IMG/VR virus record: IMGVR_UViG_3300027712_000018
Strand: one strand, 5' to 3'
Length of the DNA stretch: 64,000 nucleotides
DNA from: a virus
Part shown: piece by piece, positions 3,041 to 26,525 of the stretch
How positions within the stretch are numbered: position 1 is the stretch's first letter
Layout: each line of letters opens with the position of its first letter
Notes under the pieces: generated by a model
Database searches by the model: none
What the model was told of the DNA's origin: nothing
The model's input: the letters and a program-made list of their open reading frames with translations, nothing else
Made by a program: the position numbers and the translations under genes

Positions 3041-3880
3041 TTATGTTTCCTTTTGTTTGATTGAAAGGTACTTAGTGCCGCCGTCCCAATTCATAAAGGA
3101 TATATCAAAGAAATCAATATCATGATTGGGGAAGTTCTTAACGAAGTCTTTGATATACGTTTCGTTGTCAATACCAAAGATATGTTTTGAATAGATAATC
3201 AGCCAGTTCTTGGTCTGAGTCATACGTTCGACGATCTTCGCTCTCTCTTCCAAAGGCATCTCAGTGAAAGAGAAACAGGCTATGCCAAGATCGGCCACGG
3301 GGAAACTGTCTAGGTCAACGTACTCTACGTTAGGAATGCCGATTGTGTCATGTAAGTGTTTTTGCAGAACATGGACTTCGGGAAAATCTAGGATAGAGTA
3401 CTTACCTTTGAATCCTAGTTTATGGATGATGTCTGTCATCTCACCGATACCAGCACCAATCTCTACGATGGAATCTAGTTTAGATAGGGATTCGATATCC
3501 CAACCACAAACGATCAGATGAGCCAAGAGTTGAACTCGATTGGCTGAGTAGTCTTTACCTTCGACGATTCGGAAATGTTTGTCGAAGTCTTCTTTGGTAC
3601 ATCCTACGAAAGGCTCTGTAAGAGCGTCATCATACATAGGATCTTCTGCCAACACGTCAGATACGATATCAAAGAACTCTCTGATAGGATTGAACGACCA
3701 TAGTGGAATGATGGCGGTTGACGCCCAAAGTTTGAACTTGTTTAGGTCTAGGGTGGCTGCATCATGAGCGAACACTTCCCGCATCTGAGTCCAAAAGGTT
3801 GAGTCGTTAACTCTCTTGGCCTCCCGCATCTTTAGGGAATATGGACTGTTCTCGTCGTTATCGCTCCAAATGATCATCAA
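3041..3880 (-). CDS. SAM-dependent methyltransferase (putative sugar O-methyltransferase-like)
   Basis: IVEIGAGIG motif I, ILDFPEV, FSFTEMP. Confidence 0.65.
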   Translation of the reverse strand: MMIIWSDNDENSPYSLKMREAKRVNDSTFWTQMREVFAHDAATLDLNKFKLWASTAIIPLWSFNPIREFFDIVSDVLAEDPMYDDALTEPFVGCTKEDFDKHFRIVEGKDYSANRVQLLAHLIVCGWDIESLSKLDSIVEIGAGIGEMTDIIHKLGFKGKYSILDFPEVHVLQKHLHDTIGIPNVEYVDLDSFPVADLGIACFSFTEMPLEERAKIVERMTQTKNWLIIYSKHIFGIDNETYIKDFVKNFPNHDIDFFDISFMNWDGGTKYLSIKQKET

Positions 3881-3897
3881 TCACTCCTATAATAAAA

Positions 3898-3973
3898 TGG
3901 TGCTGCCACGAGGACTTGAACCCCGCACCTGATGCTTACAAGGCAACTGCTCTACCAGATGAGCTATGACAGC
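3898..3973 (-). tRNA. tRNA-Thr(UGU)
   Basis: cloverleaf, loop CT-TGT-AA, encoded CCA. Confidence 0.93.
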
Positions 3974-3982
3974 AAGAATTCT

Positions 3983-4056
3983 TGGAGCGGGTGAGGGGAA
4001 TCGAACCCCTATCTTTAGATTGGAAATCTAAGGTCTTACCTTTACACAACACCCGC
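3983..4056 (-). tRNA. tRNA-Gly(UCC)
   Basis: TTAGA-TTTCCAA-TCTAA arm, CCA end. Confidence 0.93.
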
Positions 4057-4103
4057 ATGAATATGGTCCAGTTATTAAGGGAACTGGCAAACCTTATTGT
4101 TTA

Positions 4104-4184
4104 TTACTTCAAAGCAGCCTTAGCATACATATTGATTTCCATGCCGCAAGCAACTTCTGCAACTTTAGGTGTGTTCCAAGCCAT
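4104..4184 (-). CDS. pqqA: pyrroloquinoline quinone precursor peptide PqqA (26 aa, MAWNTPKVAEVACGMEINMYAKAALK)
   Basis: hand-translated; W-x-x-P N-terminus and E-x-x-x-Y core; AAGGAG RBS; TATAAATA at 4253-4260. Confidence 0.88.
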   Translation of the reverse strand: MAWNTPKVAEVACGMEINMYAKAALK

Positions 4185-4255
4185 ATTATAGTCTCCTTGT
4201 TAGTGTTGGACCAGTTATTTAAATTATTAAGGGAACTGACAACCCTTCGTTTTAT

Positions 4256-4717
4256 TTATACAGGTAATTCTGCCCACTGTTGAATTTTTTGTTTCAAAAC
4301 AGCAGTTGCTTCGTGTTTGTTTTTTTCACGATCCCAAACCCAATCGCCGGATGGAAGGGGTTGACCATACTTGACAACCATAGCAATTACACGAGGTAAG
4401 ACCATTAGATTGAAAGTTCTTTCATTATCCGGATTACGCTTTTGTTCGACTGTTTCATAAGGTACGCCAGCAATGAAGGCACGAGCAAGAAACGTAGCAC
4501 GATTCTCATTGCGAACATCCCACTTACGGTGGTGATTCAGTGAATGATACGCATTGAACGCTTTATCATCCCAACGAGGATACATACCATTGTTTCCAGC
4601 AGCATGCCATTGTTTCAATCCCCACTGATATTGTTTAAGTTGCTTACGCTCCTCAAAACGAATGATACGAGCTTCTTCAGAAAGGTGTTTAGATTTTACT
4701 TTAAGTTCTACAGACAT
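4256..4717 (-). CDS. hypothetical phage protein downstream of an amber-containing uORF
   Basis: 153 aa ORF; its TAGGAG RBS lies in a hairpin arm. Confidence 0.75.
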   Translation of the reverse strand: MSVELKVKSKHLSEEARIIRFEERKQLKQYQWGLKQWHAAGNNGMYPRWDDKAFNAYHSLNHHRKWDVRNENRATFLARAFIAGVPYETVEQKRNPDNERTFNLMVLPRVIAMVVKYGQPLPSGDWVWDREKNKHEATAVLKQKIQQWAELPV

Positions 4718-4812
4718 TTTATTCTCCTAAATTGATTTCAAATTGTTTATATTGAAAGTTCAATTTAGGGTGGACCAGTAATCTACGAGTTATCGCTCAT
4801 TGTAGTTCTCCA
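4715..4812 (-). promoter_or_regulatory. amber read-through leader: uORF MSDNS(TAG)ITGPP(TAA) at 4765-4800 plus anti-RBS hairpin
   Basis: GGAG RBS before the uORF; CCTAAATTGA pairs with TCAATTTAGG, covering the downstream SD. Confidence 0.6.
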
Positions 4813-4823
4813 TGTTGTTGTAG

Positions 4824-4956
4824 TGGTATCCAGCCTTGACATCTGCACATCCTGAGAAGGAATTTATCGGTTTTACCAGCAGATACAATGTCACAAATAT
4901 AAGATGCTCAAGTTGTCTCGTTTACTGTGCTTGAGTATAGCTTATAAAGGCTGAAT
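4824..4956 (-). ncRNA. orphan structured RNA ending in CCA (about 133 nt)
   Basis: terminal stem ATTCAGCCTT/AAGGCTGGAT followed by ACCA; two internal arms. Confidence 0.5.
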
Positions 4957-4959
4957 TAG

Positions 4960-5034
4960 TGGTGGTCCTAGTGGGGTTCGAACCCACGTCCAAGCGTTTT
5001 AGGGACGCCCGCATTACCTTTATGCTATAGAACC
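4960..5034 (-). tRNA. tRNA-Sup(CUA), amber suppressor
   Basis: GGCGT-CC CTA AA-ACGCT anticodon arm (C33), canonical T arm, CCA end. Confidence 0.85.
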
Positions 5035-5042
5035 GTATTTAA

Positions 5043-5111
5043 CAGGATCGTTTTTGTCCGCTAAGACATCCATTGCATTGATTTAGCGTTTTTGTTTGCT
5101 GAACCGATCCT
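5043..5111 (-). ncRNA. Y-RNA-like small RNA, copy 1
   Basis: AGGATCGGTTCAGCAA...CGATCCTG terminal stem; near-identical copy at 8559-8625. Confidence 0.6.
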
Positions 5112-5117
5112 AAATTT

Positions 5118-5192
5118 TGGTCAGGGTGACAAGGATTGAACTTGCGGCTTCTTCATTCCAAGTGAAGCACTCTACCACTGAGCTACACCCTG
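5118..5192 (-). tRNA. tRNA-Pro(UGG)
   Basis: CTTCA-CTTGGAA-TGAAG arm. Confidence 0.93.
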
Positions 5193-5198
5193 ATGGTG

Positions 5199-5288
5199 TT
5201 ATTGTGGAATGTTGGACACCGCAATATAATAAGCGAAAGGAACAGCGATAGTGCCGAACCAGCAGATTGCGATGATGAACTTTTCCAT
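5199..5288 (-). CDS. small membrane peptide (29 aa, MEKFIIAICWFG...)
   Basis: GGAGAG RBS; sigma70-type promoter directly upstream. Confidence 0.5.
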   Translation of the reverse strand: MEKFIIAICWFGTIAVPFAYYIAVSNIPQ

Positions 5289-5315
5289 GTCATTCTCTCC
5301 TTGACTTACTCTTAT

Positions 5316-5354
5316 GTTGTAACATAGATATTTTAGAATGTCAAGAACTATTTT
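5316..5354 (-). promoter_or_regulatory. sigma70-type phage promoter (AAAATAGTTCTTGACA family)
   Basis: TTGACA-17 nt-TACAAC; same upstream motif near 9082, 13291, 13619 and 13997. Confidence 0.6.
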
Positions 5355-5427
5355 GGCGAGGGTGCAGAGAGTCGAACTCTGGCTCTCAGTTTTGGAGACT
5401 GATGTGCTACCGTAACACTTCACCGAC
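5354..5427 (-). tRNA. tRNA-Trp(CCA)
   Basis: TCAGT-CTCCAAA-ACTGA arm; two acceptor-stem mismatches. Confidence 0.85.
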
Positions 5428-5429
5428 AT

Positions 5430-5505
5430 TGGCTCCCTAGTGTGGGATCGAACCACAGACAGGCGAGTTAACAGCTCGCTGCTCTACCATCTGAGCTACT
5501 AGGAA
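5430..5505 (-). tRNA. tRNA-Asn(GUU)
   Basis: GCGAG-CTGTTAA-CTCGC arm. Confidence 0.93.
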
Positions 5506-5511
5506 ACATTC

Positions 5512-6027
5512 TTAAGATACTTTAACCAAGGTTCTCATATGAACCCTTTGGATGTTATAACCACCCGCCACGATTGTGCGAATGTTAACCCGATGTTCTC
5601 CGACTTTGAAACTGCCTTCAAAACCATCACTGACATGTTTCAGTTCAAAGTCTGGAATCTCTTCAATGTTCTTCTTACGCAGGGCCGCAATGATCTGATT
5701 GTCACGCTTGTCAATCAACGACAGAGTATTCTTCATCATGTTATCAAGACCACCTTGAAGGCCACGACTAGCGATCAACTTCATCATCGCTTCGCTGCCC
5801 CAATACTTGATCACTTCAGCACCACGAATTTTATAGTCTTCGTATTTGGTGTGTTCCGCATCCCACTTTTTCATGTGGTCTTGGAAACCTTCGATTTTGG
5901 CCTTAGCCCAAGCCTGATCTTTCTTAATCACATCGGCGTCCAACTCTGCAAACGCTTTACTAATTTTTTCTTTCATCTCTTTCTCAGGGGAGACGGCTTC
6001 GGAGAGGTAGTTTTTGAAAGACAACAT
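5512..6027 (-). CDS. hypothetical protein, possible internal head protein
   Basis: N-terminus MLSFKNYLSEA resembles a T4 capsid-targeting sequence. Confidence 0.6.
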   Translation of the reverse strand: MLSFKNYLSEAVSPEKEMKEKISKAFAELDADVIKKDQAWAKAKIEGFQDHMKKWDAEHTKYEDYKIRGAEVIKYWGSEAMMKLIASRGLQGGLDNMMKNTLSLIDKRDNQIIAALRKKNIEEIPDFELKHVSDGFEGSFKVGEHRVNIRTIVAGGYNIQRVHMRTLVKVS

Positions 6028-6092
6028 TGGTTTGGTCCTCGACGTTACTTGTATACATTACTATATATACAAACGCTTGTCAAGCATTATTT

Positions 6093-6180
6093 TGGCGGAT
6101 CGTGTGGGAATCGAACCCACTCTACCCTTACAGGTAGTACGGTTTAGCAAACCGCTGCCTTACCAGCCGGCCCACGATCC
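6093..6180 (-). tRNA. tRNA-Ser(GCU)
   Basis: long variable arm, loop TT-GCT-AA, G73. Confidence 0.92.
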
Positions 6181-7253
6181 AAATCTTTACCTACATATTC
6201 GTGACTGTAACACACTCTGTCAGCGTGTTTAGCCAGATATTCTTGCGGCATCTTACGACTATAACCACTATCGTTTGGGTGTTTGTAGTCGCTTCTTGAG
6301 ATGCCGTTCTTACTTGTAGGAACCCAAAGATTAGACGCATTACGATACTCGCCTAGTCTTGGGTGAGCAGTCTTCGTAAAGAACCTCTTGCCCTCTCTAA
6401 GGTGGAGTTCTCCTAGTGCTTCTGTCATCCTTGCACCTATACCTAAGCCCTGAAACTCAGGTAGTACAACCGTTCTGTGACCCCGCCACGCCTTGTTTAG
6501 AGTGCCACTAGGCATCGCTAGACTTGAAAGAAATCCGACAGGTCTGTTGTTCCATGTGACAATCCAGCATCGTGAACCTTTATTGATGTTCCCGTCAAGA
6601 TAGTGATGGTCGCCGAACAATGACCAAGCTTCGGTTGAACAAGGTAGGAGTTCCAAAACGATGGCTGGCCTTTCTAACCTCCTTGTGGACATCTTACCAG
6701 TTTGAGTATCGAATACCCAATCTGGACGCAGCCACTCAATGATGTCATAGTGACAGGATGAAAAGACGATCTTCTTAAGACCCTTGGCGTGAATGTAACG
6801 GTGGACCGCATTCGAACAAGACTTGGCGACATCACGGTCAATAACAGAAGTGAACTCATCCACCACCACATCATTGTCTAGTTGTCTAGCCAAACGAGCA
6901 CGAAACTGTTCACCATTAGATAACACGTGGTAAGGACGAAGCCAACTTGGAATACTGTTGAACCCTACCGCACCAAGACGTTCTTGCGCTTGTTTGGCGT
7001 TTTCAAAATGAGATGCAACGCACTGATCAGGATTCCACTCTGGTTCCTTTTCAAAACCAAATTCCTTGAGCAGAGTACTCTTGCCAGATCCCGAAGGACC
7101 GACGATCAAGCCAATGCTGAAGTCTTTGAGAGTGGTTTCTCTATCAATTGGACTGATAGTAGGTGGAACAAACTCAGTAGTGCCATCAAACTTGTAGTCG
7201 AACATCTTACTGATTTCAGCAGTGATATCGTCTTGTCTAACGGTTGACTTCAT
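6144..7253 (-). CDS. ABC-type ATPase fused to a GNAT acetyltransferase
   Basis: GPSGSGKST Walker A, LSNGEQ signature, VVVDEF Walker B, VVLPEFQGLGIG acetyl-CoA motif. Confidence 0.85.
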   Translation of the reverse strand: MKSTVRQDDITAEISKMFDYKFDGTTEFVPPTISPIDRETTLKDFSIGLIVGPSGSGKSTLLKEFGFEKEPEWNPDQCVASHFENAKQAQERLGAVGFNSIPSWLRPYHVLSNGEQFRARLARQLDNDVVVDEFTSVIDRDVAKSCSNAVHRYIHAKGLKKIVFSSCHYDIIEWLRPDWVFDTQTGKMSTRRLERPAIVLELLPCSTEAWSLFGDHHYLDGNINKGSRCWIVTWNNRPVGFLSSLAMPSGTLNKAWRGHRTVVLPEFQGLGIGARMTEALGELHLREGKRFFTKTAHPRLGEYRNASNLWVPTSKNGISRSDYKHPNDSGYSRKMPQEYLAKHADRVCYSHEYVGKDLDRGPAGKAAVC

Positions 7254-7266
7254 GATCTATCCAGTG

Positions 7267-7539
7267 TTACAACAAACTTAAAGCATAATACATATGATCT
7301 TCAAGTTCTAGGGGGAAATCGTTAGCAGAACTTTTATTGACAAATCTTCCCGTACCATAGAAATATTCAATTAAAATGGTGCAAGCTTTGACATAACGTT
7401 GGCATTCTTTGCGATTAAGTTTAGACAACAAAGGATTGCCTTCTTGCTGTGCATTTATTTTACGCAAATCACGAATCAAATTAAGTTGTTCATCAGTCCA
7501 CGACGACCTCATAAGAGGATCATAGTATATACTTTGCAT
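7267..7539 (-). CDS. hypothetical protein
   Basis: 90 aa ORF with AAGGA RBS. Confidence 0.55.
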   Translation of the reverse strand: MQSIYYDPLMRSSWTDEQLNLIRDLRKINAQQEGNPLLSKLNRKECQRYVKACTILIEYFYGTGRFVNKSSANDFPLELEDHMYYALSLL

Positions 7540-7553
7540 AATCAGTTCCTTAT

Positions 7554-7648
7554 TGGTATTGCTAGGGGTTTCGGACGCTCCCTATTACGCAGCACTACGC
7601 TACTCGACTTACGCCTAAGTCTGGGTCTGTTAGTTCCGTTCTAGCAAT
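7554..7648 (-). ncRNA. orphan tRNA-like RNA ending in CCA (about 95 nt)
   Basis: ATTGCTAG/CTAGCAAT acceptor-like stem followed by ACCA; interior is not a cloverleaf. Confidence 0.5.
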
Positions 7649-7651
7649 TTT

Positions 7652-7728
7652 TGGTGCCTTTGGTGGGATTCGAACCCACACTGAACGGCTTCTAAGACCG
7701 TTATCTCTACCAGTTGGACTACAAAGGC
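7652..7728 (-). tRNA. tRNA-Leu(UAG), short variable loop
   Basis: loop CT-TAG-AA. Confidence 0.9.
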
Positions 7729-7734
7729 ATTATT

Positions 7735-7808
7735 TGGTAGTTCGTGAGGGAATCGAACCCCCGTAGTCGCCGTGTAAAGACGAAGTTCTACCATTGAACT
7801 AACGAACC
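7735..7808 (-). tRNA. tRNA-Val(UAC)
   Basis: loop TT-TAC-AC. Confidence 0.92.
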
Positions 7809-7814
7809 ATAATT

Positions 7815-7888
7815 TGGCGATCTATACGGGACTCGAACCCGTCTTCCTAGATAGACAGTCTAGGGCCTTCCCTGACGGCAAATAGACC
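7815..7888 (-). tRNA. tRNA-Asp(GUC)
   Basis: CTAGA-CTGTCTA-TCTAG arm, G73. Confidence 0.88.
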
Positions 7889-7893
7889 AATTT

Positions 7894-8451
7894 TTATTTC
7901 TTAAACGTTGCAGTTACAGTCTTACCGCCAGCGATGTCGTTGATCGTTGACATGAAACCGCCAAGCGCACTTGTAGAGTTATTCAGACTACTCACAAGGC
8001 TGTCTGCAGCATTCTTAGCAGAAGTCAAAGATGCAATCGTTTCCGCTGCCGCACCACCCGCCACCGCCGCAGCAAGATCACTCGCCGCTGTCGCCGCATC
8101 CGTAACCGCATTAGTTATCGCCGATGTTAAAGTGGACTCGATATTAGATGCCAGCCCAGCGAGTTTACTAGAGATGCCACCCAACAGATCCGCAGTTCCG
8201 ATATGTTGCAACTTCTTAAAGGTATCATACCCAGGAATTAAATTCAACATCTTTTTCACCAAAGTCTGACCCGCCGCACTCATATTGTATGATACAAGAG
8301 AAGGTGCAGCAGATCCCGCCGTGTATGGGTTTGCAGCTAGTGCAATAACCAATCGTGAGATGCCAGCATAATGTGCTACTAGATCGTCGTCAACTCTATC
8401 CAATCTTGCATGGAGAGCTTGCAGTTGCGTATTTAAATTATTATCAGCCAT
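7894..8451 (-). CDS. hypothetical Ala/Ser-rich helical protein
   Basis: 185 aa ORF with AAGGAG RBS. Confidence 0.65.
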   Translation of the reverse strand: MADNNLNTQLQALHARLDRVDDDLVAHYAGISRLVIALAANPYTAGSAAPSLVSYNMSAAGQTLVKKMLNLIPGYDTFKKLQHIGTADLLGGISSKLAGLASNIESTLTSAITNAVTDAATAASDLAAAVAGGAAAETIASLTSAKNAADSLVSSLNNSTSALGGFMSTINDIAGGKTVTATFKK

Positions 8452-8476
8452 AATATATCACTCCTTTAAACACGTT

Positions 8477-8550
8477 TGGTGGACCGTATGGGAATCGAAC
8501 CCATTGACAGCGATCTTGCAAGGATCACCCGTAACCCCATTACACAGCCC
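8477..8550 (-). tRNA. tRNA-Ala(UGC)
   Basis: loop CT-TGC-AA and G3:U70 pair. Confidence 0.88.
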
Positions 8551-8558
8551 GTATTAGA

Positions 8559-8625
8559 CAGGATCGTTTTGTCCGCTAAGACATCATTGCATTGATTTAG
8601 CGTTTTGGTTTGCTGAACCGATCCT
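8559..8625 (-). ncRNA. Y-RNA-like small RNA, copy 2
   Basis: near-identical to 5043-5111. Confidence 0.6.
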
Positions 8626-8631
8626 TTAACT

Positions 8632-8721
8632 TGGCGGAGAGCGTGAGATTCGAACTCACGGAACGTTTCACCGTTCGGCAGTTTTCAAGACTGCAGGCAT
8701 AAACCACTCGCCCAGCTCTCC
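8632..8721 (-). tRNA. tRNA-Ser(UGA)
   Basis: long variable arm, loop CT-TGA-AA. Confidence 0.93.
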
Positions 8722-8727
8722 GTATTT

Positions 8728-8805
8728 TGGTTGCGGTGGGTAGGAATCGAACCTACGTATTCGGCTTATGAGACCGTGCTGGAACCACCTCCAGTCTACC
8801 CCGCA
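8728..8805 (-). tRNA. tRNA-Met(CAU), initiator-like
   Basis: GCGGGG...CCGCAACCA ends as in fMet tRNA; CAT anticodon. Confidence 0.85.
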
Positions 8806-8808
8806 AAA

Positions 8809-8900
8809 CTCTGTTTTTATCTACACTGGCTAACTTCGGATCCTTGGCCAAGGCGTTCTAGTAGTTAGCAACTCACCCGTCAGTGTAGATAAAAACAGAG
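8809..8900 (-). ncRNA. structured RNA closed by a 20-bp perfect inverted repeat
   Basis: CTCTGTTTTTATCTACACTG / CAGTGTAGATAAAAACAGAG. Confidence 0.45.
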
Positions 8901-9017
8901 ACAATCAACTCTGCTTACACACGCACCCCATCTAGTGGACTAATCTCAGCAAAGTGTTTTGGGCGGCCTACCCTCATTTGCGGGGCGCATGTGTAAACAG
9001 AATCGCTTCTGTTTATC

Positions 9018-9097
9018 TTTTCAAAGAACACGAAGGTCTTTTCGTTCCCTTCATATACTATATATACGTTCTGTAACCGAATGTCAAGAACTATTTT
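9018..9097 (-). promoter_or_regulatory. sigma70 promoter followed by a hairpin and a boxA-like antitermination site
   Basis: TTGACA-17 nt-TATAGT, GAAGG...CCTTC hairpin, TGTTCTTTGAAAA. Confidence 0.55.
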
Positions 9098-9101
9098 GTG
9101 T

Positions 9102-9221
9102 CAGGATCAACTTTTTGCTACGTGTGCTACCATTACACTAATGCCTCTTACGAGAGCACCTAGGATTCGAACCTAGACTTCGATCTTTCAAGGATATGCA
9201 ATTTGTTGCTGTAATGATCCT
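9102..9221 (-). ncRNA. YrlA-like Y RNA with a permuted tRNA-like domain
   Basis: AGGATCA...TGATCCTG stem enclosing T arm (CTAGG-TTCGAAT-CCTAG), closed acceptor-like stem and D arm (GTGTAATGGTAGCAC); directly downstream of the TROVE-like gene. Confidence 0.7.
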
Positions 9222-9241
9222 ATATTAGTAGCCACGACCCA

Positions 9242-10672
9242 TTACAGGTCGTAGCGAGAGTTCATCAGAGTCTTCAACATGACGTTGTAAGGAGTGTAAT
9301 CCTCAAGGTCATTTGCAAGAACACTCTTCATCACTGAAGGAGAGAAACCAGAAACAAGCGCAGTACCGTTCTTGTCGAACTTAACAGGAGTGTTACCGTT
9401 TTCCTTACCTTGCATTGACAAGTTCCAGAAGACGATCTTAGGAACATTGTAACCCGCTTCCTTGTACTTACGCTTGATCATCTGCACTGCAGTGTCATCG
9501 TACTTGGTGCAAGAGTCAAATTGCATGTCCGAAAGGATCAGAAGCATGTCTGGCATATCTTCCTGAGAAACTTTACCCTTGACAGCAACTTTGAGTATTT
9601 CATCAAATGCTGCATGAAGGTTAGTACCCATCTGCCAGTCTGCCTTTGACATCTGTTCCATCTTCTGAGACAGAGTGCCTTTCACGTATTCCATCTTTGG
9701 CTTCGAAGAGAAGGTCAGGAATACATCCTTGAAGACGCCAGTGTTCTTATCGGCACAGTAAAGACCAAGGGAAACAGCAATGTCGATTGGTTGCAATTGG
9801 CTGGCTGAGGTGTACCACAACGAACCCATAGAAGCTGAAACGTCTACCATAGGCAGAACCTTCGCATCACCGATATAGTTAGGCAGAGCCTTCCATTGTT
9901 CATCGGCGACCGCTTTGTTACCCTTGACTACAGACTTCACGACATCATACGGATATACCGCACCAGCGTTGATCTTAACCTTTGGGTCACGTTCTGCTTG
10001 AGGCTTCTTCAGTTCCGCAATGTAGGCAGAGTAGGACTCTTTTGCATTACGACCGAAAGCCTTTTGGTAACGAGCAGATGCAACAGAAGGAACATGCGAG
10101 AAGTTGATGGCATCCCATTCCTTTGCACACATCTGAGTTTCAACGACATTGGTCAAACCGACAATCAACTTACGGTATGCCTTTGGAGACAAACCAAGGT
10201 AGCGAGTCAGTTCAACGGCGACAGGGCCCTTACGTGGCATCCACTTTGCTGCCAGACCATTCTTCGCCTGTAGAGCCTCTGCGATCAAGGCGAACGCCTG
10301 ATTGCGGTTGATAGGATCTTTGTAGGTAAAGAGGTCATCCCAACGACCAAGTGCAGGGATTTTGTGCATCAACTTACCAGCCAGAGTTGGGTCGGTGGAC
10401 TCTAGTGCTGATAGCAGATTACGGAAGGTAGCACGTTCGCCCGCACCCTCACGAATGTCACGAGCCCACTGCAGCATACGCAGAGTGAGGTCGGCATTCT
10501 CAACGAAAGAGGTTACGAATTGTTTAGTGATATCGGTGCCACGGGCAGAACCAATAAGACCGAAGAGATCCAAAACAGGAGATGCCGAAGTGGCACGAGC
10601 CTTCATACCATTTTCGGTTCTTTTAATAACTTTCCCAGATTGATTTTTCACCGCTTCAACGAATGAAGTCAT
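9242..10672 (-). CDS. TROVE/Ro60-like RNA-binding protein with C-terminal vWA domain (DUF2828 type)
   Basis: TENG, RDIREGAGER, GRWDD, AAKWMPR, MIDAS DVSASM, SDMQFD, IVFWNL, SGFS motifs. Confidence 0.85.
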   Translation of the reverse strand: MTSFVEAVKNQSGKVIKRTENGMKARATSASPVLDLFGLIGSARGTDITKQFVTSFVENADLTLRMLQWARDIREGAGERATFRNLLSALESTDPTLAGKLMHKIPALGRWDDLFTYKDPINRNQAFALIAEALQAKNGLAAKWMPRKGPVAVELTRYLGLSPKAYRKLIVGLTNVVETQMCAKEWDAINFSHVPSVASARYQKAFGRNAKESYSAYIAELKKPQAERDPKVKINAGAVYPYDVVKSVVKGNKAVADEQWKALPNYIGDAKVLPMVDVSASMGSLWYTSASQLQPIDIAVSLGLYCADKNTGVFKDVFLTFSSKPKMEYVKGTLSQKMEQMSKADWQMGTNLHAAFDEILKVAVKGKVSQEDMPDMLLILSDMQFDSCTKYDDTAVQMIKRKYKEAGYNVPKIVFWNLSMQGKENGNTPVKFDKNGTALVSGFSPSVMKSVLANDLEDYTPYNVMLKTLMNSRYDL

Positions 10673-10673
10673 T

Positions 10674-11345
10674 TTATGTATCCTTTGCTGTTTTCAATCT
10701 TATCTTTGCTTCGCTAGAAGTATGTTGCACATACTCCCAATCTTTTTTGTCGCCTTCTTGACTCCAAAACTTTTCTTTAGATATTGTAACACGTTTACCA
10801 AATTTGTCAACAACTATTACGCTACCAACAAAATTATGAGTTCCCTTTTCAATTTTATTTCTATTGTTCTCAGAAGCCATTTTTGAACCCGCTTCTCCAG
10901 AGAATAGATTAGTTCCATTTTCAACTTGCTTCCGACTTCTTATTTTGGAAGACTCAGACATTTTTCTTCTTGTTTGGTCGTCAAAGTCGTTATAACATTT
11001 GCCATATCTGCTTTGACGTATTTTTTCTTTGTGTTCTTCACAAAATTTTATACCTTTAGGACTACCATCTAACCCATTTTCTTCTTTTAAGTTTGCCCAT
11101 TCTTCTGAATTTGCAATGTTGTTTTTTATTGAAAATTCTATCGCAAAAGATGAACACAAAATTTCATTGTCAAACAAACCTAAAATTTCTGTAGTGAAGT
11201 CATTACCGTGTTTTTTAAGGTGTTTTTTCCAGTAAACACCAGACCCTTTATATTTGAATGGATCTTTCCGTGTTGTTTTACCAAAGTATTTTAAACCAGT
11301 TTTGTTATGAGTTTTTACATAAAGATAGATCATTATTACCTCCAC
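10674..11345 (-). CDS. GIY-YIG (Seg-like) homing endonuclease
   Basis: IYLYVKTH..TGLKYFGKT, YKGSG, NUMOD3-like HKEKIRQS; AT-rich relative to flanks. Confidence 0.8.
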   Translation of the reverse strand: MEVIMIYLYVKTHNKTGLKYFGKTTRKDPFKYKGSGVYWKKHLKKHGNDFTTEILGLFDNEILCSSFAIEFSIKNNIANSEEWANLKEENGLDGSPKGIKFCEEHKEKIRQSRYGKCYNDFDDQTRRKMSESSKIRSRKQVENGTNLFSGEAGSKMASENNRNKIEKGTHNFVGSVIVVDKFGKRVTISKEKFWSQEGDKKDWEYVQHTSSEAKIRLKTAKDT

Positions 11346-11389
11346 AATCTATTTTTATTTATTATATTATTGTTTTCAGTACGTGTATT

Positions 11390-11465
11390 CAGGATCGTGC
11401 CTTTCGGCTTTGTTTTCATTACAAGTGAAATGCTCTATGAGCTGTTTTGTTGCAGTAACGATCCT
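11390..11465 (-). ncRNA. Y-RNA-like small RNA, copy 4
   Basis: AGGATCGTTACTGCAA...CGATCCTG; internal anticodon-like hairpin TTTCA-CTTGTAA-TGAAA. Confidence 0.6.
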
Positions 11466-11513
11466 TGATAGATTAATAGTAACACCTTCATTCGTAGATG
11501 TCAACTATTATTT

Positions 11514-11588
11514 TGGAGCGGGTGGTGGGATTTGAACCCACGACAGCTTCGTTGGCAACGAAGTACTCTACCCCTGAGTTACACCCGC
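11514..11588 (-). tRNA. tRNA-Gly(GCC)
   Basis: CTTCG-TTGCCAA-CGAAG arm. Confidence 0.93.
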
Positions 11589-11597
11589 AATTCTGAT

Positions 11598-11673
11598 TGG
11601 CACCGTGCATGGGCTTCGATCCCATCCCATATCAGTCACAGTGAGATATGCTTCCATTTACACTTGTCACGGC
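11598..11673 (-). tRNA. atypical tRNA-His(GUG), possibly degenerate
   Basis: loop CT-GTG-AC; bulged acceptor stem; T loop ATCGAAG. Confidence 0.6.
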
Positions 11674-11676
11674 ATT

Positions 11677-11865
11677 CTAGTTTTGCTTACCAACTACAAG
11701 TGAATCATCTACTACATTGAGACTATCCAAATATACCCATACTCCAGGACCTGGGTATGTCGGATCCCATTTTACTAATGCACCAGTATCTTCTATTCGG
11801 ATGATCTGACCCACCCAACCAGTATACTCGTTGCCATACCTCGTTACTTTATCGCCGACTTTCAT
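11677..11865 (-). CDS. small SH3/KOW-like hypothetical protein
   Basis: MKVGDKV...G.I......VKW pattern; GGAG RBS. Confidence 0.6.
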   Translation of the reverse strand: MKVGDKVTRYGNEYTGWVGQIIRIEDTGALVKWDPTYPGPGVWVYLDSLNVVDDSLVVGKQN

Positions 11866-11886
11866 ATGTATCTCCACATTAAGAAT

Positions 11887-11961
11887 TGGTACTGGATAGT
11901 GGGATCGAACCACGTCCACCTCAGTCACAGTGAGGGATGCAACCATTACACCTTATCCAGC
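11887..11961 (-). tRNA. tRNA-His(GUG), alphaproteobacterial type
   Basis: CCTCA-CTGTGAC-TGAGG arm; A73 and no encoded G-1. Confidence 0.88.
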
Positions 11962-12067
11962 ATTATAGCGCCACCAAGTTATCGTCTATTAATAAAAAGT
12001 CTGGGTAGCTACTCCCGCTTTATTACATACCATCACAGTATTTGTCTCGAATAACTCAGTTACTACT

Positions 12068-12148
12068 TGGAGCCCCAGGAGGGATTCGAACCCGCATCTT
12101 CCATCCATTATCCTGCTCTTCGTTCGTAGCGAAGGGGAATACTGAGGC
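12068..12148 (-). tRNA. non-canonical tRNA-Arg(ACG) lacking a D arm
   Basis: acceptor GCCTCAG/CTGGGGC, CTTCG-CTACGAA-CGAAG arm, T arm, long variable region. Confidence 0.65.
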
Positions 12149-12152
12149 GTAT

Positions 12153-12226
12153 TGGTGCTGCTAGGAAGAATCGAACTTCCGTCTCATCCTTACCAAAGAT
12201 GAATAATACCTTTATACTATAGCAGC
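12153..12226 (-). tRNA. tRNA-Thr(GGU)
   Basis: loop TT-GGT-AA. Confidence 0.9.
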
Positions 12227-12233
12227 GTTGTTT

Positions 12234-12307
12234 TGGTACTCTCAAGAGGATTCGAGCCTCTTCTTCCTCCATGTCGGGGAGGCGTCCTACCATTAGACGA
12301 TGAGAGT
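12234..12307 (-). tRNA. tRNA-Val(GAC)
   Basis: CCTCC-CCGACAT-GGAGG arm (C33). Confidence 0.8.
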
Positions 12308-12312
12308 ATAAT

Positions 12313-12386
12313 TGGTGCTCCCAACGGGACTCGAACCCGTTTCAACTGATTGAAAGTCAGCTATCCTACCCGTAGACGATGGGAGC
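12313..12386 (-). tRNA. tRNA-Glu(UUC)
   Basis: loop CT-TTC-AA. Confidence 0.92.
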
Positions 12387-12392
12387 ATGATA

Positions 12393-12483
12393 TGGTGGGG
12401 AATGGACGGATTCGAACCTCTTGCCGTTTCCGGGACAGGGTTACAGCCTGCCGCTAGGACCACCTAGCCTTATTGCACTCCCC
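12393..12483 (-). tRNA. tRNA-Tyr(GUA)
   Basis: loop CT-GTA-AC, variable arm; extra nucleotides before the D arm. Confidence 0.8.
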
Positions 12484-12488
12484 AAACT

Positions 12489-12563
12489 TGGTAGTCCTAG
12501 GGTGAATTGAACACCCGACCTAAGAGTTATCAGCTCTTCGCTCTACCACTGAGCTATAGGACC
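12489..12563 (-). tRNA. tRNA-Ile(GAU)
   Basis: AAGAG-CTGATAA-CTCTT arm. Confidence 0.93.
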
Positions 12564-12652
12564 AAACTCTATTGTTGCGCTTCTACGAGAGGCGTTAAGA
12601 GAAAATTTCAGCCAGAAATTCTTTTAATGTGCAGCTGGATCTGACACAGTTC

Positions 12653-12727
12653 TGGTGTCGAGGGGCAGAATCGAACTGCCTACGCCTTGCTCTTCAGGCA
12701 AGCGCTCTACCATTGAGCTACCAAGAC
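12653..12727 (-). tRNA. tRNA-Phe(GAA)
   Basis: CTTGC-CTGAAGA-GCAAG arm. Confidence 0.9.
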
Positions 12728-12733
12728 ATCATT

Positions 12734-12810
12734 TGGTGTGCCGAGTGGGAGTCGAACCCACGACCTTGAGATTAAGAGTCCCCTGCTCTAGACCACTGAG
12801 CTACCGGCGC
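12734..12810 (-). tRNA. tRNA-Lys(CUU)
   Basis: loop CT-CTT-AA. Confidence 0.92.
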
Positions 12811-12904
12811 ATTACTTAGAAGATACACTACATGTTGCAGAGGTTTATGCTGCTCCACAACTACTTACCAACAGCGTCTGGGCGGTAGTGTATCATCAAA
12901 GTAA

Positions 12905-12981
12905 TGGTGAATCGGGTGGGGTTCGAACCCACGTTGACACGGATTAAAAGTCCATCGCTAAACCAACTCAGCTACCGATCC
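12905..12981 (-). tRNA. tRNA-Lys(UUU)
   Basis: loop CT-TTT-AA. Confidence 0.92.
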
Positions 12982-13113
12982 ATTCTTCAAAGCCATCTTA
13001 TCGTCACGGCGTTGAACCTTCTTTGGCTTCCCGTGAGCACCACAAACCTTGAAGCGCATATGCTCCACGAAAGGATTGCGTTGTTTGGGAAGTTCCTTAT
13101 GTTTTCGTTTCAT
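12958..13113 (-). CDS. small basic protein (51 aa, MKRKHKELPKQRNPFVEHMRFKVCGAHGKPKKVQRR...) with its stop inside tRNA-Lys
   Basis: hand-translated; AAGGAG RBS; TAG lies in the tRNA D arm. Confidence 0.6.
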   Translation of the reverse strand: MKRKHKELPKQRNPFVEHMRFKVCGAHGKPKKVQRRDDKMALKNGSVAELV

Positions 13114-13306
13114 TTTCCTTCTCCTTGAAGATCACGGTCATCTTACCGTTAGACCACTGTTTCAACACGAACATATTGTATTTCCAAACACCATACTTAC
13201 GATGTACACTGTTTAGGTAACTTAGATTTCCTGAGTGGATCATGTCATTTCCTCTTCCGACATTGTTTTTATAACACAAACAAAACACAATGTCAAGAAC
13301 TATTTT

Positions 13307-13381
13307 TGGATGGGGAGGTAGGATTCGAACCTACGGTACACGCATTCAAAGTGCGATGCCTTACCACTTGGCCACTCCCCA
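13307..13381 (-). tRNA. tRNA-Gln(UUG)
   Basis: U1-A72 pair, loop CT-TTG-AA. Confidence 0.93.
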
Positions 13382-13386
13382 ACAAC

Positions 13387-13492
13387 TCTGTTTACAACTG
13401 TTATGTACGTTCATCAACCAACTGAGCTGCTCGGGGATTTTCCCCCAAGGATGGACTCGAACCACCGACCTCACATAACATGTGAAAACAGA
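13387..13492 (-). ncRNA. circularly permuted tRNA-like RNA (YrlA-like architecture)
   Basis: T arm GGTGG-TTCGAGT-CCATC, closed acceptor CTTGGGGG/TCCCCGAG, D-arm-like GCTCAGTTGG, long closing stem. Confidence 0.6.
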
Positions 13493-13544
13493 ATCATCTG
13501 TTTCCAGTTCCGTCATCGGGTAACCCCTAGGAACAGTTTCTAAA

Positions 13545-13634
13545 TTTTGAAAGAGCAAGGGGAGATTGATGTCATCTCTTCGTCCCCACATCCTCACCAT
13601 ACATCAAACAAAAACGTATGTCAAGAACTATTTT
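13545..13634 (-). promoter_or_regulatory. sigma70 promoter followed by a hairpin and a boxA-like site
   Basis: TTGACA-17 nt-TATGGT, then TGCTCTTTCAAAA. Confidence 0.55.
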
Positions 13635-13706
13635 TGGTGGTGCCAGATGGACTCGAACCATCTCAACGGGCTTATGAGACCCATGTCCGCCCCATGCGGT
13701 GTCACC
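13635..13706 (-). tRNA. tRNA(CAU), Met or Ile2, short D arm
   Basis: loop CT-CAT-AA, canonical T arm. Confidence 0.75.
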
Positions 13707-13712
13707 ATAACT

Positions 13713-13790
13713 TGGAGGTTGAGGAGAGATTCGAACTCTCGGCTTTACGGATTTGCAATCCGCCCCCTTGGACCACTCGAGCACTCAACC
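13713..13790 (-). tRNA. tRNA-Cys(GCA)
   Basis: loop TT-GCA-AA, U73. Confidence 0.92.
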
Positions 13791-13795
13791 GTATT

Positions 13796-13826
13796 AAAAA
13801 ACCCTCCTAGACTTTCGTCTGGAGGG
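13796..13826 (-). terminator. attenuator terminator upstream of the tRNA array
   Basis: CCCTCCAGAC-GAAA-GTCTAGGAGGG followed by TTTTTT. Confidence 0.8.
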
Positions 13827-13855
13827 CTCTTTGATAAGGTATTTTAGAAATATCC

Positions 13856-13942
13856 CTATATAGAACCCCCACGCATACGAATATACTCGCCGGTAAAGAC
13901 CGAGCGCTTCGCATTCATTGGTGACTGTAGATGGCAGAGCAT
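13856..13942 (-). CDS. attenuator leader peptide MLCHLQSPMNAKRSVFTGEYIRMRGGSI
   Basis: hand-translated; AAAGGA RBS; 18 different amino acids; overlaps antiterminator arm GGGGGTTCT. Confidence 0.7.
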   Translation of the reverse strand: MLCHLQSPMNAKRSVFTGEYIRMRGGSI

Positions 13943-14011
13943 TTAGGGGAGTTCCTTTGTTCGTTGTTACTTATATTTATACTAGTTTGGTCGTGATGTC
14001 AAGAACTATTT

Positions 14012-14458
14012 TCAAGAAATGAAACTTTTTAGTTGCCAGTGCATTTTCTCATGAAAATCAATGCGGTCTTCTAGGAAGTTCACGATGCCGTACTTCTTTG
14101 CAGCAGCGGCGATGTCGTGGGCTACGTAGAGTTCCTTGATCATGATTTCGTTGTCAGCATATAGTTTTGAGAACATTCCACTTGCTGATGGCACGTTAGT
14201 CTCGTCAGCGATCTTGGTTAGGTCTGCGAACCGTGCCAACGATCCTGGAACGAACGTGTCTAGGGTGCGATTGTGTTCTGCATACGAATCGACTGATTCC
14301 CACACAGCTTCATAGAAGTCACCAAAGAAGTCATGGTATTCGGAGAAGTTTGGGCCAGTTACGTTCCAGTGAAAGTTGTGGGTCTTCAGATACAACGAGA
14401 ACGCTGTAGCTTGAAGCACCTTGAGTTGTTCAATAAGTTTTTCCATAATAGTCCTCAT
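14012..14458 (-). CDS. dps: Dps / ferritin-like DNA protection protein
   Basis: KTHNFHWNVTGPNF..YH..F, D..AE, HEKMHWQL motifs. Confidence 0.92.
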   Translation of the reverse strand: MRTIMEKLIEQLKVLQATAFSLYLKTHNFHWNVTGPNFSEYHDFFGDFYEAVWESVDSYAEHNRTLDTFVPGSLARFADLTKIADETNVPSASGMFSKLYADNEIMIKELYVAHDIAAAAKKYGIVNFLEDRIDFHEKMHWQLKSFIS

Positions 14459-14482
14459 GTTTCTATATGGTTATTTATAAAA

Positions 14483-14623
14483 TGGTACTCCCGATAGGAC
14501 TCGAACCCCTGACCTAGGCGTTATGTAACAATGGTAGTTCCCCAGAGACTCGAACTCTGACCTGAAGCGTTATGAGCGCTTTGTGCTGACCTTTACACCA
14601 GAGAACCACTGAGCTACAGGAGC
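14483..14623 (-). pseudogene. disrupted tRNA(CAU) whose two halves flank the nested tRNA at 14532-14607
   Basis: 5' part GCTCCTGTAGCTCAGTGG and 3' part CATAACGCCTAGGTC...CGGGAGTACCA form a matching acceptor stem. Confidence 0.65.
14532..14607 (-). tRNA. tRNA(CAU), Ile2 or Met
   Basis: AAGCG-CTCATAA-CGCTT arm. Confidence 0.88.
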
Positions 14624-14624
14624 A

Positions 14625-14822
14625 TTAAGCTGCTATCGAAACATCCCTAAACGTGTATTGGTGATAATCAACCACAATACCATCAAGTACATCTGATACT
14701 TCTTTTGCTTGTTTGACGTTACTAAAGGTAAGTGGTATTATGTCCACTGACTTGTACAAACCTTTTCCGATAAAAACAATTTGGTTCACCAGTTCGTTGT
14801 TACGTTCAATAGCATAAGTCAT
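14625..14822 (-). CDS. hypothetical protein
   Basis: 65 aa ORF with AAGGAG RBS. Confidence 0.6.
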   Translation of the reverse strand: MTYAIERNNELVNQIVFIGKGLYKSVDIIPLTFSNVKQAKEVSDVLDGIVVDYHQYTFRDVSIAA

Positions 14823-14865
14823 ATCGTCACTCCTTGTTGGGGGCTCGATAGTATTTATGGTAGAA

Positions 14866-14959
14866 TGGTAGTCCCATCCGGATTCGAACCGGAGACGCTC
14901 TCTAATCTGGAGACGATGCGAGGTATAAGCTCGGTGTTTTACCGCTAAACTATGGGACT
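14866..14959 (-). tRNA. tRNA-Ile(UAU) with a long variable arm
   Basis: loop CT-TAT-AC; extra arm of about 24 nt. Confidence 0.78.
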
Positions 14960-15139
14960 AAAATATTATTGTCTCTTTTTGTTGTTTAGTTCCGTAATGC
15001 GATTAGAGATCCACTCAGTGGTGGCAACCCAGCTCGCATCTTGTTGGTCAATTTTGGTAAGATTTAACTTACTCAATGCGATAGTCAATCCTGCAAGTTC
15101 GGCGTACTCTGTACTAGTCATTTAAACCTCTTTGAAGAT

Positions 15140-15215
15140 TGGTGCCCATGGTCGGACTCGAACCGACACTGTGAAGATTTTAAGTCTCCTGACTCTACCT
15201 TTGGCCTACATGGGC
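15140..15215 (-). tRNA. tRNA-Leu(UAA), short variable loop
   Basis: loop CT-TAA-AA. Confidence 0.9.
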
Positions 15216-15221
15216 GATGTT

Positions 15222-15298
15222 TGGTGCTCCCAGAAGGACTCGAACCCTCAACCTGCGGAGTAGAAATCCGTTGCTCTGTCCAGTTGAGCTATGGAAGC
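15222..15298 (-). tRNA. tRNA-Arg(UCU)
   Basis: loop TT-TCT-AC, A20. Confidence 0.93.
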
Positions 15299-24653: not shown

Positions 24654-26525
24654 TTAGTTAAATAGTTTGTTGAATTCGGCAGACTTGACACGTTGTGGCT
24701 TAACATCATATGGAGTAGTCGTGTTTGTGTTTGCGGTGACGTTTGACTTGGTTGACTTGACTGTAGCATCCTTAGCGACAGAACTGGTCTCTTCATTTTG
24801 ATACAACCACGATTCGGAAACTTCAACATAATACTTTCCACTAAGAGGACTGTGCTTTACAGTACCACCGTTCTTAGCAGCAAAGTTTGTCGCCTGTGTT
24901 TTGTTTGCAAAGACTTTATTGAATTTCTTCGAATTGTCCTTGGCATCAGATTCGGTCTCTTCTTTCATCTTCTTCTTCGCAATCGCTATAGCAGCTTGTT
25001 GTGCAGGATTTGCGGCTTCCTCTTTCATCTTTCTCTTCATCATGTCATCATAGATCTTTTGCTTTTCTGGATCTTTCATGTTGCCAGTCTTTGGATCAAT
25101 CAACTTAGCAAGGTGTGGAGGTAATGAAGATTCTTCTTTAGCATGAACTTTTACGTTAGAATTGCCTCGTATTTTGTCGATTGCCATGTCAGCACCTGTT
25201 TCACGCTTGTTAGCACGTGTGATAAGTGGGCGAGCTGTGGATCGGTCTGTTGATCCAATAATTTTTCTCAAACTGGTGCTGCCATCCTTTGTAGCTCTGT
25301 TAGCATAACGACCAAGAAGTTCTGGTGACAATTCGTTAAGTGCTTCTAGTTCTTCTTTGATGCTATGTTCGCCTTTTGGAAGACGACCAACAACTTTACC
25401 ATTGTTATGAACAACGAAATCACCATTGTTAGCAACCGCAGAAGTATATGGGTGATCCTTTGGTAGTCTTGTCTTACCAAGTGCCTTCAACATATGCTGA
25501 TGATAGATGTCAGTCTTGGCTTCATCAAGATCGACTTCCTCTTTCATCTTCTTCTTTGGAACTTTACTAGAGTAGGTATTCAATTCGAAAGGCTTGTTAC
25601 CACCCTTGTTGTAGACTTGAATGTGAATCATATGTGGATTTCCTGATTTATCGGTAGCAGGAATGTTATGACTTACGGTGTTACCTTCACTTGGTTTGCG
25701 AGGGCCAGATGCGATGTGAGTGTCACGATCTTCATCACTTACCGACAGATGTCCATGGTGGTCAAGAGCGGTGTTAATCGCACTGGTGTAAGATGGGTGG
25801 TAAGTCTCATACGATTCGTCTAGTTCGAAAGATTCGGTCATCTTTTTAAGTTCACGCTGTGCGTCCTGCATCATAGACTTGGCGTATGTTTTGTAACTTG
25901 CGGGATTTTCGCCCATATCTTCGATTTCTTTGTTCGAAGCCATACCTACGTAGTGCCAGTAGTTTACGTTACCCTGCGCCTCTTTTTTATTAGTAGGCTT
26001 TTTTGTATATTTGAATGGGTTATTGCTGTGACTTGGATCATCTTTAAGTGAAACTGCTTCGTTGTAGTGATTGCCAATTTCAACTCGTCTTGAAACGGCG
26101 TTGACTTTAGCACCACCGTGTCCAGTTGCCTTTTTGACAGCCAGTTGCATAGCAGATGAAGCTTGCTTTCTTTTTTCAATTGGGAGTTTGGTGTTGTCTG
26201 CTTTATTAGCAAAACCGTGTGCCGCTCTGGTCGCCAAATCCTTAGAGATTTCGTCTAGGTGTTCGGTTTCTTCGTTGTGAGGTGTGTATGTATGTGGCAT
26301 ACCTTTGTTCTTATCGTGTTTAACGTAGACACCACCGTTGTCAGAATGAAGGACGCTATGTCCCTTGTTTTTTTCCATAAAGTCGTTTGCAGTTTCTTTA
26401 CTGTCAAAACGTTTTACTTTCTTATACTTTTTACCATCATGGATGATACTGACGCTAGCACCATTACCACCTGACATCTCAGTCAAGTTGTCTAGTGCTC
26501 TGAATAGGGATTCTCTAAGGTTCAT
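24654..26525 (-). CDS. probable internal head polyprotein
   Basis: modules separated by L/M-x-E motifs (LDEI, LDES, LDEA, LNEL, MKEE). Confidence 0.6.
   Translation of the reverse strand: MNLRESLFRALDNLTEMSGGNGASVSIIHDGKKYKKVKRFDSKETANDFMEKNKGHSVLHSDNGGVYVKHDKNKGMPHTYTPHNEETEHLDEISKDLATRAAHGFANKADNTKLPIEKRKQASSAMQLAVKKATGHGGAKVNAVSRRVEIGNHYNEAVSLKDDPSHSNNPFKYTKKPTNKKEAQGNVNYWHYVGMASNKEIEDMGENPASYKTYAKSMMQDAQRELKKMTESFELDESYETYHPSYTSAINTALDHHGHLSVSDEDRDTHIASGPRKPSEGNTVSHNIPATDKSGNPHMIHIQVYNKGGNKPFELNTYSSKVPKKKMKEEVDLDEAKTDIYHQHMLKALGKTRLPKDHPYTSAVANNGDFVVHNNGKVVGRLPKGEHSIKEELEALNELSPELLGRYANRATKDGSTSLRKIIGSTDRSTARPLITRANKRETGADMAIDKIRGNSNVKVHAKEESSLPPHLAKLIDPKTGNMKDPEKQKIYDDMMKRKMKEEAANPAQQAAIAIAKKKMKEETESDAKDNSKKFNKVFANKTQATNFAAKNGGTVKHSPLSGKYYVEVSESWLYQNEETSSVAKDATVKSTKSNVTANTNTTTPYDVKPQRVKSAEFNKLFN

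Follow-up and report, generated by a model that had tools for sequence, protein, structure and literature searches.

How does a gene for the PQQ precursor peptide PqqA come to stand in the genome of a tailed phage, and what would it do there? The question is raised by a 64-kb stretch of uncultured viral DNA (IMG/VR record IMGVR_UViG_3300027712_000018; hereafter the window), in which an initial annotation had picked out a 26-aa ORF within a tRNA island as a phage-encoded PqqA. Although below the size threshold of the ORF track, the ORF and its translation were reproduced exactly. Its location was likewise confirmed: pqqA lies at the edge of an island of 27 tRNA genes. Coordinates of the locus are collected in Table 1.

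Table 1. Features of the pqqA locus and its surroundings in the window
Feature	Position	Strand	Description
pqqA ORF	4104-4184	minus	26 codons, ATG start, TAA stop
Inserted segment	4107-4258	minus	152 nt: one repeat copy, ribosome-site leader, pqqA
Upstream repeat copy	4207-4258	minus	Stop codon of the 153-aa ORF, A-rich stretch, putative hairpin
Downstream repeat copy	4064-4106	minus	pqqA stop codon, A-rich stretch, putative 6-bp hairpin
Shine-Dalgarno sequence AAGGAG	4193-4198	minus	8 nt upstream of the pqqA ATG
Late-promoter motif TATAAATA, T4-type	4253-4260	minus	69 nt 5′ of the pqqA ATG
Upstream 153-aa ORF	4256-4717	minus	Left neighbour of the insertion; anchor for the empty-site search
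tRNA-Gly(UCC)	3983-4056	minus	Directly 3′ of pqqA
tRNA-Thr(UGU)	3898-3973	minus	After tRNA-Gly
tRNA island	3898-15298	all minus	27 tRNA genes (ARAGORN)

The gene sits in a bona fide viral genome, where it is flanked by phage ORFs and phage tRNAs. PHROG matches in the window include a T4-type major head protein, sheath, large terminase, family-B DNA polymerase, helicases and ribonucleotide reductase. Among cultured phages, the capsid protein is closest to that of Methylophilales phage Melnitz (66%), followed by Stenotrophomonas phage DLP_6 (65%), Pelagibacter phage HTVC008M (63%) and cyanomyoviruses (~61%); no cultured phage close to the window in DNA was found.

Both curated models of the PqqA family recognise the peptide. 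Pfam PF08042 gave 37.5 bits against a cut-off of 21.1 (E 2e-9, model positions 1-19 of 19), and NCBIfam TIGR02107 gave 39.5 bits against a cut-off of 20 (E 3.5e-10, positions 1-19 of 21), a margin of ~17-20 bits, so the proposed identity passed the family HMM check. In PqqA, the Glu and Tyr of an E-x-x-x-Y core become PQQ, a W-x-x-P leader is the part recognised by the chaperone PqqD, and the tail after the Tyr is cut off during maturation. The phage peptide has the leader motif (Trp3 and Pro6) and the core (Glu16 and Tyr20, preceded by Gly14), and Glu10 is retained as well. When it was set against 64 distinct alphaproteobacterial PqqAs, only Lys22 and Ala24 had no counterpart and the remaining residues fell inside natural variation, a comparison that is partly circular because several columns were preset by the search pattern. 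Both residues belong to the C-terminal tail, and it is in the stretch after the Tyr that natural PqqAs vary most. A PDB sequence search with the peptide matched no solved structure. A chance ORF is rejected by the HMM scores and the conservation described below, and we conclude that the window encodes a genuine member of the PqqA family. Judged by sequence, the phage peptide would be bound by PqqD, cross-linked by PqqE and converted to PQQ.

Linkage to pqqBCDE is typical of primary bacterial pqqA genes but is not required of the family, and orphan copies exist. The window copy has no such linkage. PqqB, PqqC, PqqD and PqqE queries from a Rhodobacterales operon, whose identity was confirmed by NCBIfam, had no tblastn match in either the window or 121 viral loci, while the identical queries found their targets in 96, 80, 71 and 71 of 120 bacterial loci, respectively. 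Profile HMMs of the four proteins, built from 64-87 alphaproteobacterial sequences each and run in six frames, likewise found no match with E ≤ 1, whether in the window, the 36-kb contig carrying locus L241 (see below) or 120 viral loci. The earlier observation that the window lacks pqqBCDE is thus upheld by two methods. Since no pqqB-E adjoins any viral pqqA, bacterial contamination of the viral contigs is also rejected, and the window pqqA is a stand-alone phage gene. No PQQ-dependent dehydrogenase was detected within the 64-kb window either. A 623-aa ORF (24654-26525) considered as a methanol dehydrogenase was rejected: neither Pfam nor PHROG matched it, and tblastn showed no resemblance to the Rhodobacterales PQQ dehydrogenase.

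Further viral copies, which the initial annotation had suggested looking for, are numerous. A tblastn search of 50,697 GenBank phage records with the 26-aa peptide came back blank at E ≤ 10, the query being too short for a database of this size; the blank carries no weight, since a family-HMM search did detect a copy in a cultured phage (see below). A degenerate DNA pattern for the PqqA core, by contrast, matched at least 120 loci in IMG/VR. All 119 ORFs extracted from these loci are intact and stand-alone and have 23-27 codons; the Trp follows the ATG by 1-4 codons, and the stop lies 22-23 codons beyond the Trp. Among the matches listed, the 119 ORFs encode 71 distinct peptides; 99 are of the E-[VI]-T type, as in Melnitz, and 20 of the E-I-N type, the latter being closest to uncultured marine Alphaproteobacteria. 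Phage proteins in common with the window were found at 33 of the 120 viral loci listed.

One more copy was found by a single-record family-HMM search in the cultured phage Melnitz-3 (MZ577098.1), at 76137-76193 on the plus strand (35 bits to PF08042, above the cut-off). It is unannotated; instead, an antisense hypothetical protein on the minus strand, Melnitz3EXVC039M_152, is annotated over it (locus L247, 76100-76195), and this annotated ORF is probably spurious. The paper describing Melnitz does not mention pqqA (PMC9004378). Such genes are smaller than the thresholds used for ORF calling, and even the annotation of cultured phages overlooks them or gets them wrong. Pelagibacter phage HTVC008M and Stenotrophomonas phage DLP_6 have no pqqA.

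The novelty of a phage pqqA, implied by the initial annotation, does not hold. Viral PqqA was reported in 2020 in phages of Lake Baikal methylotrophs and was read there as an auxiliary metabolic gene in support of PQQ-dependent dehydrogenases (Coutinho et al., Microbiome 8:163, PMC7678222), and a 2026 study placed viral pqqA among phosphorus-cycling genes (PMC13188868). With these reports and the IMG/VR loci at hand, a lone phage pqqA is already known, and the window holds a further example of that kind of gene. What is new here is modest but concrete: the alphaproteobacterial peptide type, a candidate host lineage and, above all, the evidence of an insertion and its empty site.

Viral pqqA is under purifying selection. 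Summed diversity at codon positions 1, 2 and 3 was 2.24, 1.66 and 7.68 among 71 distinct viral DNAs of the E-V-T type, and 4.51, 2.72 and 8.65 among 15 distinct viral DNAs of the E-I-N type. The third position is thus 2 to 4.6 times more variable than either of the other two, and none of the 119 viral copies has a broken frame. Across the four variants of the cassette described below (window, L266, L241 and L262), the ORF has accumulated four synonymous changes and one conservative change (A2T).

Two copies of a short direct repeat flank pqqA directly, at a spacing of 152 nt, and occur nowhere else in the window. They align over 35 nt at 80% identity (4224-4258 versus 4072-4106) and over 13 nt at 92% (4207-4219 versus 4064-4076), the upstream copy having a 9-nt insertion relative to the downstream one. 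The downstream copy, which lacks a T-run, stops 7 nt short of tRNA-Gly. Its hairpin folds marginally better than expected (-9.1 kcal/mol, z -1.9), and the fold of the upstream copy is no better than those of shuffled sequences (z -0.24). The hairpins of the flanking repeats are therefore weak, and the RNA structure is putative.

The 153-aa ORF upstream of pqqA, which has no PHROG or Pfam match, has relatives at 60-82% aa identity on six IMG/VR contigs. In the two closest (L253 and L254, 82%), after the stop codon of this ORF come a single element copy and then tRNA-Gly(UCC), with no pqqA. Alignment of the window to this site requires a single, exact insertion of 152 nt in the window, whose borders are uncertain by one repeat length, and the one element copy present at the empty site differs very little from the downstream copy of the window. 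No pqqA was found on the five contigs of these relatives that were searched (fragments of 8-20 kb); any benefit of pqqA must be conditional, since close relatives do without it. A tRNA with a CUA anticodon (an amber suppressor, labelled 'Pyl' by ARAGORN) is conserved 5′ of the 153-aa ORF, at 4960-5034 in the window and, in two of the relatives, at 1687-1760 (L256) and 1733-1807 (L257).

The same segment occurs in other phages at other places. In L266, the ORF is 100% identical in nucleotides and the cassette 98.6% identical over 139 nt, the flanking genes being ~83% identical to the window; there, unlike in the window, the cassette sits between tRNA-Asn and tRNA-Pro. In L241, the ORF is 96% identical in nucleotides, with three differences, all synonymous. 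The cassettes of L241 and L262 are 94% and 91% identical to that of the window, respectively, in phages that have little in common with it: two proteins are common to the window and the 36-kb contig of L241 (41% and 53% aa), and one to the window and the L261/L262 loci (40-42% aa). All four cassettes keep the 3′ hairpin element. In L241 and L262, the cassette also has a promoter-like arrangement upstream (TTGACA, a 17-nt spacer and TATAAATA) and a strong terminator on its 3′ side (-23.5 kcal/mol, z -5.3). The window has just the TATAAATA motif and no terminator. Within the initial 17 kb of the L241 contig (IMGVR_UViG_3300027754_000237, which also includes loci L251 and L252) there are 27 tRNA genes, and the estimated CheckV completeness of 7% for its 36 kb would imply a very large phage.

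The pqqA insertion, its empty site and the presence of the cassette at several sites are direct observations. We propose that pqqA reached the window phage recently as a cassette of ~150 nt in which a ribosome site and the ORF after it are enclosed by two hairpins. More tentatively, and with the odds somewhat against it, such a self-contained cassette may hop between intergenic sites in the tRNA islands of related and unrelated phages, duplicating the hairpin between gene end and tRNA as it inserts. If so, it would be among the smallest mobile metabolic units known in viruses, and the hairpins would be recombination hot-spots that build phage tRNA islands.

The initial annotation had taken the peptide for an alphaproteobacterial form, and a scan of 185,579 species genomes for W-N-T-P ... 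E-I-N-x-Y supports this: it matched at least 120 loci, and the named taxa among the matches listed were all Alphaproteobacteria. The closest bacterial PqqAs among these matches, identical at 21 of 26 residues, come from two uncultured Rhodobacterales/Rhodobacteraceae MAGs (L182 and L147) and a MAG labelled only Pseudomonadota (L239). In these and in metagenome contigs L264, L265 and L267, residues 1-11 and the G-M-E-I-N-M-Y core are the same as in the phage peptide, and the five differences fall at positions 12, 13, 22, 24 and 25. The bacterial gene lies in DNA of 57-59% GC with pqqB, C, D and E downstream, whereas the phage copy stands alone in DNA of 41-43% GC. Identity between the phage gene and the closest bacterial pqqA DNA is 74%, so transfer from bacteria was not recent. 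The L182 gene was confirmed to head a pqqABCDE operon, and a PQQ dehydrogenase of the methanol/ethanol family is encoded ~5.5 kb downstream of it on the same contig (420 bits, below the 480-bit subfamily cut-off).

In a pattern search, the exact 11-residue N-terminus was found in one of 401 sampled alphaproteobacterial genomes, which belongs to the same Rhodobacterales lineage. A metagenome scan for this N-terminal form returned nine contigs, largely with neighbouring sample identifiers: three bacterial ones of 57-59% GC, with pqqB, pqqC and pqqE 96-98% and pqqD 89-90% identical to those of L182, and six phage-type ones of 41-47% GC without pqqB-E. The host of the window phage is probably an alphaproteobacterium, and the Rhodobacterales lineage known from these MAGs would be the best candidate because the closest PqqA is found there. 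The reasoning behind this assignment is that the peptide has to suit the PqqD and PqqE of the host, which holds for Melnitz, the one cultured case checked, where PqqA is of the type of the OM43 host; recognition of the phage peptide by Rhodobacterales PqqD and PqqE is assumed. The type of tmRNA was rejected as a host marker, as Melnitz has an alpha-type tmRNA though its host is OM43 (PMC9004378).

Several signals upstream of pqqA bear on its expression. The AAGGAG ribosome-binding site and the T4 late-type motif that the initial annotation had noted were both found in place. The former belongs to a leader, ACAAGGAGACTA, that does not differ between the four cassette variants. The latter, TATAAATA, occurs 14 times in the window against 2.6 expected from shuffled sequences (5-fold enrichment), 13 of the 14 copies being on the coding strand and several lying 19-50 nt 5′ of the genes for capsid, sheath and other late or large genes. 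From this enrichment and placement, the window phage appears to use T4-type late promoters. The copy nearest to pqqA overlaps the stop codon of the 153-aa ORF. Because relatives without pqqA carry CATAAATA, one base off the TATAAATA consensus, at the same position, this copy belongs to the resident spacer between gene end and tRNA-Gly and is not a dedicated pqqA promoter; for the same reason, late timing of pqqA is uncertain. A search for a sigma-70-like promoter or an intrinsic terminator flanking pqqA in the window found none, no terminator was found between pqqA and tRNA-Gly/tRNA-Thr, and an Rfam search of 3700-5100 returned tRNAs only. Late expression of pqqA and its co-transcription with tRNA-Gly and tRNA-Thr are plausible on this layout.

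The island itself contains other repeated elements. A repeat present in five copies (family D6; 5317-5354, 9060-9097, 11477-11514, 13269-13306 and 13975-14012) reads roughly AAAATAGTTCTTGACAT on the minus strand and lies just 3′ of tRNA genes; its TTGACA might serve early, sigma-70-type promoters of the next unit as a -35 box. A 50-nt direct repeat of 90% identity (family D19; 5071-5120 and 8585-8634) includes the last few bases of tRNA-Pro and tRNA-Ser(UGA) and extends downstream on the coding strand. T-arm-like sequences GGxxTCGAACC at 12065-12100, 13436-13471, 8723-8757, 13629-13663 and 14477-14515 align with the tRNA repeat families yet were not called by ARAGORN, and may be tRNA-like RNAs or degenerate tRNAs. 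The island also encodes a 369-aa protein (6144-7253) with an N-terminal P-loop (ABC/AAA-like) and a C-terminal GNAT acetyltransferase domain (phrog_11143), which is 84% conserved in L266.

These observations are best accounted for by a functional stand-alone phage pqqA that supplies the consumed PQQ precursor to host PqqBCDE, i.e. an auxiliary metabolic gene, a reading to which we assign a probability of about 0.7. The similarity of the cassette (91-100%) between phages whose remaining common genes have identities of ~83% in DNA or 41-53% in protein, the direct repeat bounding the insert, and the empty site of close relatives with no pqqA on their contigs would also be expected if the cassette were a selfish or neutral passenger that spreads by hairpin recombination between tRNA islands, its conservation reflecting recent transfers. 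We regard this as unlikely. Substitutions are biased to synonymous ones by 4 to 1, the ~120 older and far more diverged viral copies vary mainly at the third codon position with the frame always intact, and the peptide type follows the host class in Melnitz.

Two further alternatives concern what the product does. The initial annotation had floated a decoy, that is, a peptide that occupies host PqqD/PqqE and blocks PQQ synthesis, and the atypical tail, with Lys22 and Ala24 unseen among the 64 alphaproteobacterial PqqAs, could be taken to favour it. However, a blocking peptide should have lost one of the residues that become PQQ, and here Glu16 and Tyr20 are both retained, with their spacing, Gly14 and the leader motif; as the tail is also the part in which natural PqqAs vary most, we judge this role very improbable. 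Still less credible is a leader peptide, in which translation of the short ORF and the hairpin would control transcription or processing of the downstream tRNA and the resemblance to PqqA would be secondary. In the window, L266 and Melnitz-3, pqqA does stand immediately before a tRNA (tRNA-Gly, tRNA-Pro and tRNA-Leu, respectively), and a hairpin separates ORF and tRNA. Yet merely 6 of the 120 viral pqqA genes among the matches listed have a tRNA within 1 kb, a strong intrinsic terminator, and not a tRNA, comes directly after the ORF in L241 and L262, and the same hairpin precedes tRNA-Gly in relatives without the ORF. The full-length match to curated family HMMs would also be left unexplained.

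In the favoured reading, precursor supply, phage PqqA would be made in the infected cell from transcripts starting at the late-type TATAAATA motif or reading through the tRNA island. The PqqD chaperone of the host would bind the peptide via its N-terminal Trp/Pro leader, host PqqE would cross-link Glu16 and Tyr20, and a host protease, PqqB and PqqC would complete PQQ. As one peptide is destroyed per PQQ made, shutdown of host transcription would stop the supply of precursor. The phage copy, translated during infection, possibly late, and used by the enzymes of an alphaproteobacterial host, may then benefit the phage by keeping periplasmic PQQ dehydrogenases (of the methanol/ethanol or sugar type) and respiration supplied. 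Some uncultured Alphaproteobacteria (L134, L141 and L160) show two or three matches to the pqqA pattern per locus, ~300-1,100 nt apart; such multiple genes are a bacterial means of making more precursor and parallel the phage strategy.

PQQ-dependent dehydrogenases carry out the periplasmic oxidation of methanol, ethanol and sugars in many aquatic bacteria, and a phage that brings the one consumed component of the pathway can sustain this energy source while host transcription fails. The carriage of psbA by cyanophages is a comparable strategy. Our results extend the published cases, in phages of Methylophilaceae, to a T4-like phage with an alphaproteobacterial-type peptide. In addition, the empty-site comparison traces a route by which a tiny gene is gained, and bears on how tRNA islands and auxiliary genes are assembled.

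Among known systems, population VP_266 of the Lake Baikal study resembles the window in that pqqA stands alone and the tailed phage is uncultured and known from metagenomes (PMC7678222). The viruses of that study differ in that Methylophilaceae hosts were assigned to them and a methanol dehydrogenase gene is also carried, whereas the window phage has an alphaproteobacterial E-I-N peptide, no PQQ dehydrogenase found in its 64 kb, and a pqqA placed on a recently inserted mini-cassette. Melnitz-3 shares with the window a lone pqqA beside a tRNA gene (tRNA-Leu) and, among cultured phages, the closest capsid (66% aa); its PqqA differs in being a 24-aa peptide of the E-V-T type, which matches that of its OM43 host.

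Morons and the T4-type promoter/stem-loop cassettes (PeSL elements) are small extra genes with expression signals of their own and hairpin borders, found at varying sites. The pqqA cassette lacks a terminator in the window and, at ~150 nt with a gene of 26 codons, is much smaller than these; it is like them in its small gene, its expression signals, its hairpin borders and its differing places in related genomes.
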